From the IMG/VR virus record IMGVR_UViG_3300042307_001070: a stretch of DNA of 64,000 nucleotides; one strand, given 5' to 3'. Each line of letters starts with the position of its first letter. Position 1 is the first letter of the stretch. Source of the DNA: an uncultured virus (IMG/VR IMGVR_UViG_3300042307_001070). Lineage: Duplodnaviria; Heunggongvirae; Uroviricota; Caudoviricetes. The notes below the pieces were generated by a model. It worked only from the letters and a program-made list of their open reading frames with translations. It did no database searches and had not been told where the DNA came from. The translations under genes and the position numbers were made by a program. Below, piece after piece: positions 40,815 to 59,469 of this stretch.

Positions 40815-41749
40815 AAATCAGGAAAAGACCTGAAACGTTCTTTGAAAATCTAAATCCGACCGAAACAGTCGTCACAGTTAAAAAAAGCGAAGTAACACCT
40901 CCCTTTCTTTATATGTGAAACTAAATTAAGTCATTGGGCCGTGTATGGTCCATTAAAATAAACCACGAAAGTGGGATAAAGTGAACCCTTAGTGTGTTGG
41001 GTTTGCGTCTTGGTGAGTCTTCGGACTTGTCGAGATTGAGTACACAAGCGGGATACCGCTTAACCTTTAGTACCGAGGGCAACGCTGTAGGGAAAGTGGT
41101 TAGGTGAATTGGCAATGTGGGTTGTCAGTTTGAGATGGGAACATCGATAGGAATAACTCGTAGGGATATTGCAAAAAATAAGGTTATCCGATTTTATTAT
41201 TGCGTGTTCCATTATGATAGGATACTTAAAACCGAAAGGTATGTTAGTGTACAAGTGGTGTTGTTACTAACCTTGACCGTCCCCTACCAAGGGTTCGATC
41301 TCGAAGTAGTCTTGAAATATTGAGATGGGGACATTTCACGGGGTAGTTTGGTATTTCGTTGTTCAAAAGATAACGAATCTAAAGACGGACCACTACTTCG
41401 ATCAATCCACGACACCAAACTTATGGAGCTTTAATTCCAATTAAAATTACATTAAGCAAAAGTGTTCGTCAGGTGTCAATGAAAGGTGACTACATAGTAA
41501 CGAGCAGTTCGTTGCGTAGTGAGACCGCAAGTTGAACTACATTCTTACCAAAAACCTCTATTCCCGCAAGGAAGAGTTGGGACGGCAGTCTCGAAGAGAG
41601 TTGAGTAATGAGAGAGTAATTGATACCTCAAGGAGTGATTCACCTAAATAATCGTCACTGAGGAATACCATTCAAAAGATGGTGGATACGAAGGGAAACA
41701 ATAATCCTTCAAAAGGTTCTCAATAACAGGTATAATCTCAGCCTTTTTT
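40815..41749 (+). ncRNA. Large highly structured ncRNA (~930 nt), GOLLD-like candidate
   Basis: No credible ORF; raised GC; many hairpins with GAAA/GCAA/UUCG loops; 10-bp long-range helix 41301-41310/41392-41401; ends in a T tract. Confidence 0.75.
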
Positions 41750-52724: not shown

Positions 52725-52816
52725 AAAAATAATAAAAACACTTGTCAATTAAAAAAAAATACCTATATTTGTAGTGTAATTAAAACTTTTAGAAAAAACT
52801 ATATATTTATAACAAG

Positions 52817-52927
52817 ATGAGAACAACTAATAAACATATGAACATTTGTAACCCGAGCATTCAGTGGTCGTTTAACGTGTATCGTACGCTTAAGTCGCAT
52901 ATTAGGGCATTTTCATTTATGAGTTGA
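52817..52927 (+). CDS. Putative attenuator leader peptide 1 (36 aa)
   Basis: MRTTNKHMNICNPSIQWSFNVYRTLKSHIRAFSFMS* between promoter elements (TATATTTG 52764; TATTTAT 52804) and a terminator ahead of tRNA array 1. Confidence 0.65.
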   Translation: MRTTNKHMNICNPSIQWSFNVYRTLKSHIRAFSFMS

Positions 52928-52958
52928 TAAAGATTAACTAAAAATATAAAAGAAATAT

Positions 52959-52991
52959 AAGACCCGAACTCAAAACAGTTCGGGTTTTTTT
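52959..52991 (+). terminator. Intrinsic terminator/attenuator before tRNA array 1
   Basis: GACCCGAACT-CAAAAC-AGTTCGGGTT plus T tract. Confidence 0.85.
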
Positions 52992-53005
52992 ATACCCAAA
53001 AATTT

Positions 53006-53094: not shown

Positions 53095-53111
53095 GTTCTT
53101 TGACATATTGG
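53095..53111 (+). promoter_or_regulatory. boxA-like antitermination element
   Basis: GTTCTTTGACATATTGG, identical at 57178. Confidence 0.65.
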
Positions 53112-53847: not shown

Positions 53848-54390
53848 ATGGAAAGGTATTCGGAAAAAATTATATCTTTGAGGAAAGAAGGGAAAACCTA
53901 CAAAGAGATTACTAAAATTTTAGGTTGTGCAATGTCAACAGTGTCGTATCATTGTCAGATACATAAATTGGGGGATAACAACCAAAAAGTGACGGAAGAA
54001 GAGAAAGATAAACTTCAAAAATTATACGATGAAGTAGGATCCTTAAAAAAAGTTGCAAGGATAACAGGTAGGTCTTTTGAAACTGTTAAAAAACACGTTA
54101 ATAGTGTGGTTAGAGTTAAAAAGATTAGTGGTTCCCAATCGGTTATATTGTGGAGAAAGAGAACTAAAAAGAAATTAATTGAATATAAGGGGGGAGGATG
54201 TGAATTGTGTGGGTATAGTAAATGTGATTCAGCATTACAATTTCACCATAAAAACCCTGACGAAAAAGATTTCTCAATTTCTGGTAGAAGTTTGTCTTTT
54301 GACAGATTAAAAGAAGAAGTTGATAAATGTATGTTGGTGTGTTCTAACTGTCACGCCGAAATACACGAAAAAAATACCACCGAGAAGTGA
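53848..54390 (+). CDS. HTH + HNH homing endonuclease within the tRNA array
   Basis: Two HTH-like segments; CELCGY..LQFHH..CMLVCSNCHAEIH. Confidence 0.85.
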   Translation: MERYSEKIISLRKEGKTYKEITKILGCAMSTVSYHCQIHKLGDNNQKVTEEEKDKLQKLYDEVGSLKKVARITGRSFETVKKHVNSVVRVKKISGSQSVILWRKRTKKKLIEYKGGGCELCGYSKCDSALQFHHKNPDEKDFSISGRSLSFDRLKEEVDKCMLVCSNCHAEIHEKNTTEK

Positions 54391-55187: not shown

Positions 55188-55204
55188 CAAAACAAATAGA
55201 AATA

Positions 55205-55660
55205 ATGAACAGAGTATTTAGAACGGTTAACGGTGAAACAATTCCTGATGTGGTAAAACATACCTTAGATGTTCTGAAAGAATGTCCATGGGTGGAAGTA
55301 CACATCGGTACAGACTCACAAAACCACAGAAGAAGTACCGTGTATGTTACGGTAATAGCTTATAGGTATGGGAATAGGGGTGTCCATTATATTCTTCACA
55401 AACAGAAAGTGAAAAAAATAAGAGATAAATGGACACGTCTTTGGAATGAGGCCGATTATTCAATTGAGGTTGCCGAATGGTTAACCAAAAAAGTAAAGGT
55501 GCAAGTTGAGATTGACTTAGATTATAATAGTCAGGAAAAACATTTCAGTTCAAAACTTGTTCCTCCTGTTGTTGGGTGGGCAACATCGTTGGGTTATAAA
55601 ACAAATATTAAACCTGACAACCAAATTGCAACAAAAGCGGCAGATCACCACTGCCGTTAA
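55205..55660 (+). CDS. RNase H-like YkuK (DUF458) family protein
   Basis: HIGTDSQ, RLWNEA, EIDLDYN, AADH; real start MNRVFR (the track start lies inside tRNA-Phe). Confidence 0.8.
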   Translation: MNRVFRTVNGETIPDVVKHTLDVLKECPWVEVHIGTDSQNHRRSTVYVTVIAYRYGNRGVHYILHKQKVKKIRDKWTRLWNEADYSIEVAEWLTKKVKVQVEIDLDYNSQEKHFSSKLVPPVVGWATSLGYKTNIKPDNQIATKAADHHCR

Positions 55661-55910: not shown

Positions 55911-56180
55911 ATGAATAGATTAACAGAAAGAGATTTGTCAAGAATTGTTAGACAAGTTATTAAAGAAGACAAAGAAGATAAGAAAAAAACTATGAATGAC
56001 ATACCTGATAGTTTCTTTAAAAGTTTTTTATCAAAAACTAGTAGCATAATGACAAGCGAGGAGTTTTCTGATATTGAATCAATTTTAGGAAAAAGAGTTG
56101 GATCAAATGGTGAAGGTATGGGTGATGTTTTTGAAAAAATATTTATGGAAGCAAGAACAAGAAGAAGAAAAAACGATTAA
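55911..56180 (+). CDS. RLTExDL-module protein
   Basis: MNRLTERDLSRIVRQVIKE. Confidence 0.7.
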   Translation: MNRLTERDLSRIVRQVIKEDKEDKKKTMNDIPDSFFKSFLSKTSSIMTSEEFSDIESILGKRVGSNGEGMGDVFEKIFMEARTRRRKND

Positions 56181-56181
56181 T

Positions 56182-56625
56182 ATGAAAAAAATAATAAGAC
56201 TTACAGAATCAGATTTAACAAGGATAGTAAAAAAGGCGATTAACGAATCCAAATCACTAACTAAAAAACAATTGGATCAGATGGTTAAAGATAGTCTAAT
56301 CACCCCAAGAGATAGTGAAATCTTAAAACTATATTATATTGATAATATGAGTTTTGATGATATAGCTAATAAGTTTGATAGAACCGTATCAAGTACTAAA
56401 CAACTAATTAAAAAGTTATATAATGATATTTCAGATGTTGATGGGTTAAAAAATAAAAGACAAAGTAAAGATGACTCACAAAAAGAAAACCATATAAATA
56501 AAGTTAAAAAAGAAATGAAAAGGGTTAAATTTTATCTTGATAATGGTTATTTAACTAAAAATGAAATTATGTCTTTATTTAAAGAAGTTTTAAATGGTGA
56601 AGAAAAATTAACAACATTAAGATAA
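56182..56625 (+). CDS. RLTESDL-module protein with sigma region 4-like HTH
   Basis: ITPRDSEILKLYYIDNMSFDDIANKFDRTVSSTKQ. Confidence 0.7.
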   Translation: MKKIIRLTESDLTRIVKKAINESKSLTKKQLDQMVKDSLITPRDSEILKLYYIDNMSFDDIANKFDRTVSSTKQLIKKLYNDISDVDGLKNKRQSKDDSQKENHINKVKKEMKRVKFYLDNGYLTKNEIMSLFKEVLNGEEKLTTLR

Positions 56626-56629
56626 ATTT

Positions 56630-57009
56630 TTAAATAAAACTTGACACTTTTGAAAAGAGTGAATATTTATAATTAAAATAATATTATGAGAAAAACTATA
56701 AAATTAACGGAAGGTGATTTATCACGTATTGTTAGACGAGTTATTAAAGAAGATAAAGAAGAAGATGAAATGGAAGGTATGGGTATGTCCATTACAGTAA
56801 AAGATATATTTGAGGCGGTTATAGATGCTCTTCACGATCTTGGTACGTATGATGATGCATCTATGGGTGAAAAGGCAATGAATTTGGCTAAAATGATTAT
56901 GAGTAACATGCAAGATGACTTGGCTTACGTTACTGAGAATTATGAGGATCAACTTTATGATATTCTTGGTGATGAAAATTATTAAATAAAACTTGACACT
57001 TTTGAAAAG
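56630..57009 (+). repeat. 28-nt direct repeat flanking gene 56686..56985
   Basis: TTAAATAAAACTTGACACTTTTGAAAAG at 56630-56657 and 56982-57009. Confidence 0.85.
56686..56985 (+). CDS. KLTEGDL-module protein
   Basis: [22 protein letters not shown]. Confidence 0.7.
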   Translation: MRKTIKLTEGDLSRIVRRVIKEDKEEDEMEGMGMSITVKDIFEAVIDALHDLGTYDDASMGEKAMNLAKMIMSNMQDDLAYVTENYEDQLYDILGDENY

Positions 57010-57045
57010 TATCATATATTTATAACAAAACAAATAAAAACGCAA

Positions 57046-57120
57046 ATGAAAAATTTACATATCATATTATTAGGCGGATTGGCGATAGCTGAGGATCGTT
57101 CCTATAAGGAGATGGTATGA
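57046..57120 (+). CDS. Putative attenuator leader peptide 2 (24 aa)
   Basis: MKNLHIILLGGLAIAEDRSYKEMV*; GAGATGG (57109-57115) is complementary to the terminator arm CCATCTC (57150-57156). Confidence 0.65.
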   Translation: MKNLHIILLGGLAIAEDRSYKEMV

Positions 57121-57145
57121 TAAATTAATTATATAATAAATTTTG

Positions 57146-57177
57146 AAACCCATCTCAATTACGAGGTGGGTTTTTTT
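57146..57177 (+). terminator. Intrinsic terminator/attenuator before tRNA array 2
   Basis: AAACCCATCTC-AATTAC-GAGGTGGGTTT plus T tract, directly followed by a boxA-like element. Confidence 0.85.
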
Positions 57178-57290
57178 GTTCTTTGACATATTGGTAAAAA
57201 AAAGTTTAAAAAAGATTTGGTAGATCAAAATAGATTACATATCTTTGTAAAACAAATAAGGAAAAAAGGTTCTTTGAAATATTAAAAATA

Positions 57291-57383
57291 TTGTGGTTGT
57301 AAGAAACGGGAAACTCGTAAAGTGCATTAACCTGTTGACTCAAGATGGTGAAACGAGAGTTTGAGTCAACTACTAAACTACAA
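57291..57383 (+). ncRNA. Candidate structured RNA
   Basis: TTGTGGTT/AACTACAA closing helix; perfect GTTGACTCAA/TTGAGTCAAC stem. Confidence 0.5.
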
Positions 57384-57392
57384 ATGGTATAT

Positions 57393-57464
57393 CGCAGGAT
57401 AGAGCAGTGGTAGCTCGCAAGGCTCATAACCTTGAGGTCGGAGGTTCGAACCCTTCTCCTGCAA
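57393..57464 (+). tRNA. Initiator-type tRNA-Met(CAT)
   Basis: C1:A72 mismatch; CAAGG-CT-CAT-AA-CCTTG. Confidence 0.88.
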
Positions 57465-57547
57465 CAACTAATAGCCAACCAAGCTTTACTACGATACGGG
57501 TAATACCTGTGGGTTAGGGGTGACGGTCAGGAGAGACTGACGATTAT

Positions 57548-57627
57548 GCTGACGTACCGGTGGATGCTTATATCATCTATGCCCGTAGAGGAAGTTTTAA
57601 ACGTTGGTTCGATCCCAACCGTCAGTA
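57548..57627 (+). tRNA. D-armless tRNA-like RNA with TAT (Ile) anticodon
   Basis: GCTGACG/CGTCAGT; TGGATG-CT-TAT-AT-CATCTA directly after the acceptor; normal T-arm. Confidence 0.55.
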
Positions 57628-57633
57628 CAATAA

Positions 57634-57705
57634 GCGGGTATCGTATAATGGTTATTACTCCACACTTCCAATGTGGAGATGAGTGTTCGATTCATTCTAC
57701 CCGCA
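57634..57705 (+). tRNA. tRNA-Gly(TCC)
   Basis: CCACA-CT-TCC-AA-TGTGG. Confidence 0.88.
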
Positions 57706-57710
57706 CAAAT

Positions 57711-57780
57711 GGGCCTGATGCCGACGGCAGGTCAACTGATTTGCAATCAGATTGTTTGGGTTCGATTCCCACAGTGTCCA
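57711..57780 (+). tRNA. tRNA-Ala(TGC), atypical
   Basis: G3-U70 pair, bulged acceptor, CTGA-TT-TGC-AA-TCAG, tiny D-loop. Confidence 0.7.
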
Positions 57781-57852
57781 CAAAAAAAGTTTGAAAAAGA
57801 TTTGGCAGATTGAAATAGATTACATATCTTTGTAGAACAAAAATAAAGAACT

Positions 57853-58217: not shown

Positions 58218-58408
58218 AATGAGTGAGAGATACTCAAGATGTTTTTAAGTTCATACAAAACTTAACGGTAGAAGTTACACCTACGTTACGGGTACTCGTT
58301 GGGAATAAGGAAGGAAGGTTCTCCTCGCCCCCAAGTAAGAACTGACTTTTAAGTGGTAAGACACGTTGGGTTTTCAAATAGAAAAACTGTGAATATCTAC
58401 TCACCATT
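58218..58408 (+). ncRNA. Candidate ~190-nt structured RNA
   Basis: Termini pair: AATG-GTGAG-AGATA / TATCT-CTCAC-CATT. Confidence 0.5.
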
Positions 58409-58429
58409 AATCTCAGGTGGGGAAACTTT

Positions 58430-58500
58430 GGTCCATTGGTGAAATATTATCATATCTGACTGTCTATCAGAAGTCCTCGGAGAGTAACCGGGATGAACCG
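58430..58500 (+). tRNA. tRNA-Asp(GTC)
   Basis: TCTGA-CT-GTC-TA-TCAGA; G discriminator; atypical T-loop. Confidence 0.75.
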
Positions 58501-58522
58501 CACAAAGTGTTCTTTTAAAATA

Positions 58523-58663
58523 TTGATAGTGGTTTTCCCCACCTCAACGGATGTCGACAATCCAGAGTGGATCAGGAATTCAGCACCCTTTCTGCCGGGG
58601 CCCTGATAAAAGTCAGAAGAAGCAGTTAAGATTGGAGCGAGACGGGTACTCCATCACTATCAA
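58523..58663 (+). ncRNA. Candidate ~140-nt structured RNA
   Basis: TTGATAGTG/CACTATCAA closing helix right after a boxA-like site. Confidence 0.5.
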
Positions 58664-58670
58664 CATATTT

Positions 58671-58733
58671 AGTCAGGTGGCGGAAGGGTAAACGCACTAC
58701 AATCAGCAACAGGTTCGAGTCCTGTCCTGACTA
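58671..58733 (+). ncRNA. tRNA-like RNA (AGTCAGG acceptor), vestigial anticodon arm
   Basis: AGTCAGG/CCTGACT, D-arm, ACAGG-TTCGAGT-CCTGT. Confidence 0.6.
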
Positions 58734-58772
58734 CGTGGGAAAGATCTATCCCGAAAACAGAACATGGATCAC

Positions 58773-58868
58773 AAACACGTAAACCTAAGTACCTGTACAG
58801 CGGTGAGTAACGGGCTAAGTTATATACAATTCCTCGGAGCTGGGAGTAGAATGCTTAGGAGCGTGTTT
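58773..58868 (+). ncRNA. Candidate structured RNA
   Basis: AAACACG/CGTGTTT and CCTAAGTA/TGCTTAGG helices. Confidence 0.45.
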
Positions 58869-58959
58869 TTAAAATATAAAAAACTATGACACCATTATTG
58901 TTGATATTATTTATTATGTTTATCTTTGTAGTAAGAAAAAGAAGATAAAATTATTGGTT

Positions 58960-59075
58960 GGTCAGGAGTGTAATGAGGCACGGTGCCGAGTCCCCAAGAC
59001 CAATAGTCCCAGACACTTGTGGGTTCTATGGAGTCGTAAGGTTGCTCATTGTGGGTTCGACTCCCACCCTGACAT
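58960..59075 (+). ncRNA. tRNA-like RNA (GTCAGG acceptor) with enlarged central domain
   Basis: GTCAGG/CCTGAC; GTGGG-TTCGACT-CCCAC T-arm; ~65-nt insert where the anticodon arm would be. Confidence 0.55.
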
Positions 59076-59240
59076 CACCGGTTACTTGATTCCTGGTAGT
59101 AGAGTAACAACCATTGGGGAATTCGGGATGTCCCGCGAATGGTGGTGTAAGATAAGAGGAACTTACAACGGTAGAGTACCATAAACAAAAGAAACAAGAC
59201 GTAGAGGTGACTCTGCGTTGGCGCAAATCTCTACCAACTT

Positions 59241-59332
59241 AGTCAGGTTGGTACAAGGTCGGTTCGAGTCCGATGGAAGGTCATGGATGTCGGGTAGCTC
59301 CCTGTAGAGAGGTTCGATTCCTCTCCTGACTA
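59241..59332 (+). ncRNA. tRNA-like RNA (AGTCAGG acceptor) with two T-loop hairpins
   Basis: AGTCAGG/CCTGACT; TCGG-TTCGAGT-CCGA and AGAGG-TTCGATT-CCTCT. Confidence 0.55.
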
Positions 59333-59371
59333 CACTTGACATTATTAAATTAATGTCTTATTATTATACAA

Positions 59372-59445
59372 AACCGGGTAGCTCAGCTGGTAGAGCAATC
59401 CTTTTTAAACAGGACGTGTCATTGGTTCAATCCCTTTCCCGGTTT
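59372..59445 (+). tRNA. Pseudo/atypical tRNA with 8-nt anticodon loop TTTTAAAC
   Basis: AACCGGG/CCCGGTT, canonical D-arm, weak T-stem; own TTGACA-N17-TATTAT promoter (59336-59364). Confidence 0.55.
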
Positions 59446-59469
59446 TTTTATTTATAAAATTAAAATATT

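Follow-up and report, generated by a model that had tools for sequence, protein, structure and literature searches.

A compact unit composed of a promoter, a short leader ORF, a terminator and a boxA stands ahead of tRNA genes in the DNA of an uncultured phage and recurs in at least 48 distinct phage sequences. We propose, tentatively and with slightly less than even confidence, that this unit is a translation-coupled transcription attenuator that would sense the progress of the ribosome and not particular amino acids. The proposal is built on the sequence elements, on their conservation and on the energetics and statistics of RNA pairing; from these we infer translation of the ORF, termination, the switch together with its direction, and the function of boxA.

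The window (the whole analysed stretch of 64,000 nucleotides) is contained in a 109-kb IMG/VR virus record, which is ~37% complete by estimate. It carries 18 tRNA genes and one GOLLD RNA, the latter in full length at 41339-41744 (330 bits). Because Shine-Dalgarno motifs are found at just 3 of 61 gene starts of the phage (background 13.5%), gene starts are A-rich at positions -3, -6 and -11/-12, intergenic repeats of the window fit the form TTTG...TAnnTTTG, which is that of the Bacteroidota promoter, and the DNA of the window is contained in lake-water metagenomes, the source is a large freshwater phage with a Bacteroidota host. An annotated relative of the phage was not found, the search of a phage-genome collection having matched tRNA genes only. 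Among the tRNA genes of the window there is an RNase H-like protein (PF04308, 88 bits; 55202-55657) and an HTH protein with a Cys/His-rich C-terminal part (53848-54387).

The unit and the elements that follow it are arranged in this way:

56993..57022, + strand: predicted promoter of the unit, TTG (56993-56995), 19 nt and TATATTTA (57015-57022)
57046..57120, + strand: leader ORF of 24 codons, MKNLHIILLGGLAIAEDRSYKEMV, from ATG at 57046 to TGA at 57118-57120, with an in-frame TAA next
57052..57065, + strand: region 1, the 5' strand of helix P1 (codons 3-7), present in the minimum-energy fold and in the RNAalifold core
57108..57127, + strand: region 2, which includes the stop codon and can pair alternatively with the terminator 5' arm or with region 1
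57146..57177, + strand: predicted intrinsic terminator with an 11-bp stem, a 6-nt loop and a T run (57171-57177)
57178..57194, + strand: rrn-type boxA, GTTCTTTGACATATTGG, starting directly after the T run
57216..57247, + strand: predicted Bacteroidota-type promoter, TTTG (57216-57219), 20 nt and TATCTTTG (57240-57247)
57269..57283, + strand: second boxA-like element, GTTCTTTGAAATATT, ~15-30 nt past the predicted start of the tRNA transcript
57393..57465, + strand: tRNA-Met(CAT), the first tRNA downstream
57536..57628, + strand: 'tRNA-Ile(TAT)', predicted by ARAGORN only
57634..57706, + strand: tRNA-Gly(TCC)

The promoter of the unit is an 11/12 sigma-70 match (TTGACA-16-TATATT) with a predicted start near 57029; it can also be read as TTG-N19-TAnnTTTG, the Bacteroidota form. 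Its sequence is kept in nearly all variants. Copies of this promoter type are located at ~56630-56680, the second one of the window, and at 56985-57030. The type precedes at least the third (ORF from 56686) of three tandem genes at 55911-56985, which have a common N-terminal motif (LTE.DL.RIV...) and the middle one of which (56182-56622) bears a sigma-70 region 4 domain (26.2 bits, cut-off 24.1). Short contigs from RNA libraries of four runs cover 56986-57126 and 57005-57113, promoter included, and may originate from DNA; that their cover stops short of the terminator carries no weight for transcript ends or read-through. The terminator stem is formed by AAACCCATCTC (57146-57156) and GAGGTGGGTTT (57163-57173) around the loop AATTAC; the hairpin 57146-57173 is also listed by a terminator scan of the window, and a gap of 25 nt separates its stem from the end of the leader ORF. 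The inner part of its 5' arm, CCATCTC (57150-57156), is referred to here as region 3.

An earlier, sequence-only reading of this DNA had noticed that GAGATGG in the last codons (57109-57115; codons E and M plus the first V base) matches exactly the reverse complement of CCATCTC in region 3, and that the terminator has a G-U in its own stem (T57153/G57166). It further placed the block GGC..GAT (codons 10-17, 57073-57096) 12-36 nt upstream of 57109, and a boxA-like 17-mer directly after the U tract, from 57178. Re-checked against the sequence, all of these coordinates are correct. The attenuator geometry which it proposed stands insofar as three mutually exclusive pairings can be drawn: P1 (57052-57065 with 57112-57126), a 7-bp antiterminator (57109-57115 with region 3) and the terminator. 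As isolated helices, the antiterminator of the window has -8.0 kcal/mol against -16.4 kcal/mol for the terminator.

A perfect complement of at least 7 nt to the 11-nt arm appears in the 100 nt upstream in 4.1% of 20,000 dinucleotide-preserving shuffles, and a duplex as good as that of the window (-11.7 kcal/mol) in 3.8% of 3,000 random 100-nt stretches of the window. Among the eight terminator-like hairpins of the window, one has such a complement of at least 7 nt; the other seven have 5 nt or less. Because one case among eight terminators is expected by chance in ~28%, the pairing in the window alone is not beyond chance and represents weak evidence (p ~0.04 per terminator).

Relatives of the unit were searched for in IMG/VR and metagenome contigs with the first 20 nt of the leader ORF or its degenerate form, and further with a terminator pattern, with a promoter-plus-terminator pattern that left the leader free, and with a peptide pattern. 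Combined, the searches provided 96 terminator-bearing copies in 49 distinct downstream contexts; 48 distinct unit sequences chosen from the copies form the alignment. Two sequences are excluded from it, L141, in which the terminator is replaced by unrelated DNA (probably a chimera), and L142, with an unrelated 22-codon ORF; L238, L299 and L443-L445 were found later, are outside the alignment and are treated separately. The common layout is a promoter, a 17-nt leader rich in A, an ORF with 22-25 codons, an A/T-rich spacer of 21-30 nt and a terminator of the AAACCCATCTC type. Diversity is low, with an effective sequence number of 1.79 and about six leader types. Every aligned row came from a pattern fixing the 5' strand of P1, and invariance of that strand is therefore a matter of ascertainment.

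An ORF length other than 24 codons was seen in 71 of 112 metagenome and viral groups, most of them being unrelated genes starting with MK.(L/I/V)HII and a few being 23- or 25-codon variants of the unit. The peptide-pattern scan contained 25 relatives among 344 matches and gave three new contigs, all of the L299 type. In the more distant contigs L013-L017 the unit was not found, and hits fell only within a protein-coding ORF (reading HFSDLHIRLYKDHD...). A covariance model run on five large related contigs and the phage's own record returned a single copy in each record together with generic terminators, and it brought no new variation; another unit of the window was matched by it (52825-53003) through the terminator only. 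In L020 and L021, a homologous terminator lies directly 3' of a neighbouring 99-aa gene, without a leader ORF, which speaks against the attenuator; a MAFFT alignment of the 3' ends is the basis for an idea that the leader ORF may be a decayed paralogue of this gene.

The unit changes its surroundings: what follows it may be a promoter, a tRNA or a protein gene (MITFDD...), and in L029 and L039 the unit itself is without a promoter. Such mobility favors the main rival explanation, which we regard as less probable than the attenuator, namely that we deal with a self-contained, moron-like micro-gene. It would consist of a promoter, a gene for a peptide of 22-25 residues and an ordinary terminator, it would be placed at the recombination-prone border of tRNA arrays, and the complementarity between its last codons and its terminator would have no regulatory meaning. 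The pairing of the window, being within chance for eight terminators, agrees with this, as do several natural variants in which the pairing is weakened.

Conservation of the pairing bears directly on the question. An alignment of homologous loci had been named as a check of the original claim, and its outcome is two-sided: the antiterminator is paired in 96.7% of 336 cells (33-58% when slid) and one compensatory event is present, while 11 of the 336 cells hold uncompensated mismatches (8 at A57110, 1 at G57111 and 2 at T57113). The compensatory event belongs to the L022 group, where A replaces G57109 in the leader (the only change at this site) and both terminator arms change with it, the 5' arm from C to T and the 3' arm from G to A. 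In L238, the center of the pairing holds a G/A mismatch. By our own count, the antiterminator pairing is preserved by ~5 events and broken by 5-6.

The pairing of relatives usually reaches 8-9 bp, typically TGGAGATGG/CCATCTCCA, to which it is lengthened by CA at the loop start in most of them; a duplex of this kind (-15.1 kcal/mol or better) is reached by 0.4% of random 100-nt stretches (p ~0.004). Duplex energies of leader and arm span -9.1 to -16.8 kcal/mol across relatives. For the 28 combinations, matched leaders and arms have a mean of -14.14 kcal/mol against -13.50 +/- 0.17 when permuted, and 4 of 5000 permutations reach the matched value; most of this signal comes from two lineages, L022 and L044/L095, in the latter of which the CCCCTCTC arm occurs solely with the GGGAGGTGG leader. 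Both the rarity of 8-9-bp pairing and the advantage of matched pairs argue against a micro-gene with non-regulatory complementarity. At the level of the family the pairing is more than chance, on a low diversity (effective number 1.79).

When the nascent RNA is cut off within the terminator loop, the antiterminator-containing fold is more stable than that with P1 in 43 of the 48 variants, with a median difference of -4.8 kcal/mol; for the window the difference is just -0.4 kcal/mol. Medians for isolated helices are -3.7 (P1), -7.6 (antiterminator) and -15.5 kcal/mol (terminator); in 10 of 48 variants the antiterminator has -3.6 kcal/mol or weaker.

Folding of the full RNA (57029-57181) gives a long hairpin in the leader followed by the terminator, with -37 kcal/mol (z = -3.8; 0 of 200 shuffles are as good). 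The core of P1 and the terminator are retained by RNAalifold, and together they have 95.7% of cells paired and 5 pairs changed on both sides, a level reached by 0 of 500 shuffles. The terminator is paired in 97.9% of its cells and contributes 3 of the two-sided changes in the 48 variants. P1 contributes two outer pairs changed in L049/L208, its 5' strand being fixed by the search pattern. In L238, found without the bias toward P1, only the middle of P1 is retained and the inner part is lost; another two-sided change is apparent there by inspection.

One could conclude from this that the unit is a structured small RNA without coding function, ~150 nt in length, in which a long imperfect hairpin is joined to the terminator hairpin and the open frame is incidental. 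Besides the folding and the two-sided changes in P1, nucleotide-level conservation at both ends of the ORF, which pair together, and the lack of amino-acid constraint in its middle speak for such an RNA. We nevertheless find it improbable. The start codon lies in an A-rich unstructured leader, and in Rfam no family matches the leader (57029-57177) at gathering thresholds or at E up to 5, the nearest match being a weak DUF2693 RNA at 57178-57226 (E 0.78). The frame stays open throughout the 32 distinct ORF sequences, their four length classes (22, 23, 24 and 25 codons) differ by whole codons, with changes that are all multiples of 3, and the position of the stop is fixed, with a second in-frame stop after it in most variants.

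The open frame is not matched by conservation of the peptide. At codons 8-24, alternative codons are 8 synonymous versus 44 non-synonymous, while shifted frames give 7/47 and 8/44, and variable sites are spread 12/13/13 over the three codon positions. Conserved stretches are MK(N/T)(L/I)HI..GG, with which the peptide begins, and (x)(M/V/R)V-stop, with which it ends. Near the stop, G57108 (third codon position) is invariant in 48 of 48 variants, and both G57109 and G57111 are kept in 47 of 48; each of the four bases occurs at the second position of the same two codons, and the residues are M/K/V/R/T and E/K/V/G/A/D. Judged from the alignment, conservation of the ORF end is clearly at the nucleotide level, and the constraint on region 2 would act on RNA, because the Gs are fixed while second positions and residues vary. 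Since the frame stays open while codons 8-24 evolve without amino-acid constraint, the pattern fits an ORF in which translation would count for more than the peptide and both ends would be constrained as RNA. A micro-gene explains part of this picture, because the N-terminal motif is conserved and L238 keeps it despite 5 synonymous changes in 7 codons. For a functional peptide, however, evolution of codons 8-24 as in shifted frames is odd, and fixed Gs at first and third positions beside free second positions are unexplained.

It is unlikely that the purine-rich region 2 serves as a ribosome-binding site, because such a motif stands at just the above-mentioned 3 of 61 gene starts. We considered GGAG in region 2 as a Shine-Dalgarno sequence of a 3-codon mini-ORF (ATG ATA AAT TAA), after the model of the bar minigenes of phage lambda, and rejected it: the phage is without Shine-Dalgarno use, and the mini-ORF is lost in L049 and L238.

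The leader ORF is rich in rare codons. Its CAI-like score is 0.48, at the 1.7th percentile of random 24-codon windows taken from the long ORFs of the phage (0.70 +/- 0.10), codons 8-22 are at the 0.5th percentile for preferred codons, and codons 10-19 have 60% G+C in a genome of 32% G+C. GGC, for example, is used by the phage at 0.9 per 1000 codons. The sequence-only reading had attributed a specific role to the GGC..GAT block, in the sense of a classical multivalent attenuator that responds to the charging of tRNAs for Gly, Ala, Ile, Glu, Asp and Met and controls exactly these tRNA genes. The fitting geometry, several rare codons in the block, and tRNAs for Met, Gly and Glu plus a weak Ala-like tRNA downstream can be put forward in its favor. 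We consider this version very improbable. The block is not conserved, being swapped for unrelated residues in at least four leader types (relatives read LGADLEAGD, GGTDRTEAT, GGTEADTRF or GGDLAETTF there), and no amino acid or codon is repeated in tandem in the leader. Control of the listed tRNAs is likewise unsupported, since leader codons are unrelated to the tRNA downstream (Leu(TAA) in 17 of 24 cases, whatever the leader) and a tRNA for Asp was not found downstream in the window. By the rules of decoding, the window holds no phage tRNA for GGC, GCG, GCT, GAT, CGT or TCC.

Genes downstream of the terminator provide a further view. A same-strand tRNA is present in the available flank in 24 of the 49 contexts (Leu-TAA 17, Glu 3, Met 2, Asp 1, Phe 1). 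TAnnTTTG lies between the terminator and the tRNA in 19 of these 24 and is absent in 5, where tRNA-Leu follows without an intervening promoter motif (L027, L031, L040, L045 and L146). Most tRNAs thus have a predicted promoter of their own, as a micro-gene would lead us to expect. In the window it is TTTG-20-TATCTTTG at 57216-57247, which fits the motif of Bacteroidota promoters and has a copy at 57783-57840 (60 nt, 92% identical). Given this predicted promoter, the tRNAs of the window are independent of read-through, which could only add to it.

Two marks of the classical type, tandem codons and downstream genes without their own promoter, were both tested. Of the classical attenuator, the open ORF with its frame-preserving lengths and the intrinsic terminator are present; codon runs are missing and a promoter usually intervenes. 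For these two reasons the unit is not a classical amino-acid attenuator, but it may work like one.

The boxA-like 17-mer is, by sequence and position, a true rrn-type boxA. Together with a leading G it forms an 18-mer with exact copies in 64 genome loci, mostly of Bacteroidota, and the same 18-mer stands before Bacteroidota 23S rRNA: among 20 tested loci, the 5' end of 23S rRNA follows 27-51 nt downstream in 8 and tmRNA directly downstream in 2. The latter adjacency concerns the 5' end of the tmRNA gene in L338 and L344 (Fodinibius genomes). At the rRNA loci of those genomes, boxA is often preceded by a hairpin. The window contains three exact copies, versus 0.45 expected, and all of them lie inside or at the head of tRNA arrays (53095-53109, 57178-57194 and 57269-57283). 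The phage tRNA arrays may borrow the rRNA antitermination system of the host.

In 48 of 49 downstream contexts boxA is within 63 nt of the terminator, and in 23 of 49 it abuts the T run directly, which does not follow from a micro-gene with an ordinary terminator. On the other hand, inspection of some contexts (-7 box at +36) suggests that part of the boxA-like sequence supplies TTTG to the next promoter. For this reason boxA after the terminator is no proof that read-through matters, and for a micro-gene its presence need not imply read-through at all.

Several observations were made along the tRNA arrays. A second unit of the same layout precedes the first array (52742-53005). Its promoter is TTG-19-TATATTTG at 52742-52772 plus a second TATATATTTATAAC box, a 36-codon ORF (52817-52927) ends with TGA TAA, and a terminator at 52960-52987 with a T run is followed after ~19 nt by tRNA-Thr, with no promoter in between. 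In this second unit (52817-52987) the end of the ORF was found to lack a complement in the arm of the terminator, which speaks against the attenuator; the best duplex has -6.6 kcal/mol, the 50th percentile. ARAGORN did not assign identity to a tRNA with the four-base anticodon 'ttaa' at 59371-59446 (Rfam tRNA, 42 bits), which is possibly a Leu(TAA) with an unusual loop or a tRNA that reads quadruplets. The 93-nt 'tRNA-Ile(TAT)' of ARAGORN was not found by Rfam at E up to 5; conversely, a weak Rfam tRNA at 57711-57780 (22.3 bits; anticodon TGC, i.e. Ala, by eye) was missed by ARAGORN. Two blocks flanking tRNA-Met, 57299-57384 (with a 10-bp hairpin, GTTGACTCAA...TTGAGTCAAC) and 57472-57540, recur in contigs of four RNA libraries in unrelated surroundings; they are possibly RNA elements of tRNA arrays, either conserved and structured or mobile. 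The region 58220-59370 (~1.15 kb, from tRNA-Glu to the odd tRNA) has no ORF longer than 76 aa and no Rfam family at or near the gathering score.

A possible model of the translation-coupled attenuator is as follows. Transcription from the strong promoter would produce an RNA with an A-rich unstructured 5' end, followed by the ORF of 22-25 codons. Region 2, which comprises the last codons and the stop, might pair either with region 1 (P1) or with region 3 (antiterminator). When the ribosome reaches the stop codon, it would cover region 2, the terminator would form and the RNA would end at 57171-57177. If the ribosome lags or stalls in the middle of the ORF, rich in rare codons, region 2 would be left free and the ribosome itself would prevent closing of P1. 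Regions 2 and 3 could then pair, and the polymerase would read into boxA and subsequently into the tRNA genes where another promoter is absent. The signal sensed would be the speed of the ribosome through the ORF and no specific amino acid. More broadly, and with somewhat lower confidence than for the attenuator itself, we suggest that tRNA arrays of large Bacteroidota phages might be rRNA-like operons antiterminated through boxA and gated by a leader ORF that measures elongation speed.

The proposed attenuator resembles several known systems. With leader-peptide attenuators of amino-acid operons of enterobacteria (trpL, hisL, pheL, thrL, ilvL) it shares a short ORF, an intrinsic terminator, a predicted antiterminator that uses region 3, a predicted competing 1:2 helix and the stop codon within region 2. 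Unlike in the trpL type, there are no tandem cognate codons and the peptide can vary freely in its middle part, tRNAs and not biosynthetic enzymes lie downstream, the antiterminator has just 7-9 bp, the terminator is usually followed by a separate promoter, and the element is found in a Bacteroidota phage. The pyrBI and pyrE attenuators of E. coli are similar in that the signal would be the distance between ribosome and polymerase, not charging of one tRNA. The pyrBI leader ORF extends through the terminator, and a closely following ribosome blocks termination; the phage ORF, in contrast, leaves 25 nt between its end and the stem, and termination would be favored by a ribosome that does not fall behind.

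As for boxA, rrn antitermination sites consist of boxB-boxA-boxC and bind NusB/S10, and phage lambda has its nut sites. The phage 17-mer is the boxA present before Bacteroidota 23S rRNA, and there, too, a hairpin is often ahead of it; unlike at rrn sites, the phage hairpin is a full intrinsic terminator with 7 T, and a phage tRNA array follows. Morons of phages are cassettes of promoter, gene and terminator, and the unit is like them in having a small gene between its own promoter and terminator in varying contexts. No moron is known that keeps RNA complementarity between last codons and terminator or an association with boxA. Among the papers returned by full-text searches, titles and opening parts of abstracts mention neither control of phage tRNA genes by a leader ORF nor boxA in phage tRNA arrays.

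Arrays of tRNA genes are common in phages, and control of their expression is poorly known. Use of the host rRNA boxA by phage tRNA operons would be of interest independently of the switch. If our assumption of a ribosome-operated switch is true, then translation speed would feed back on the synthesis of tRNAs, so that their supply is tied to demand, and leader-peptide attenuation would extend past amino-acid operons to stable-RNA genes and to phages of Bacteroidota.
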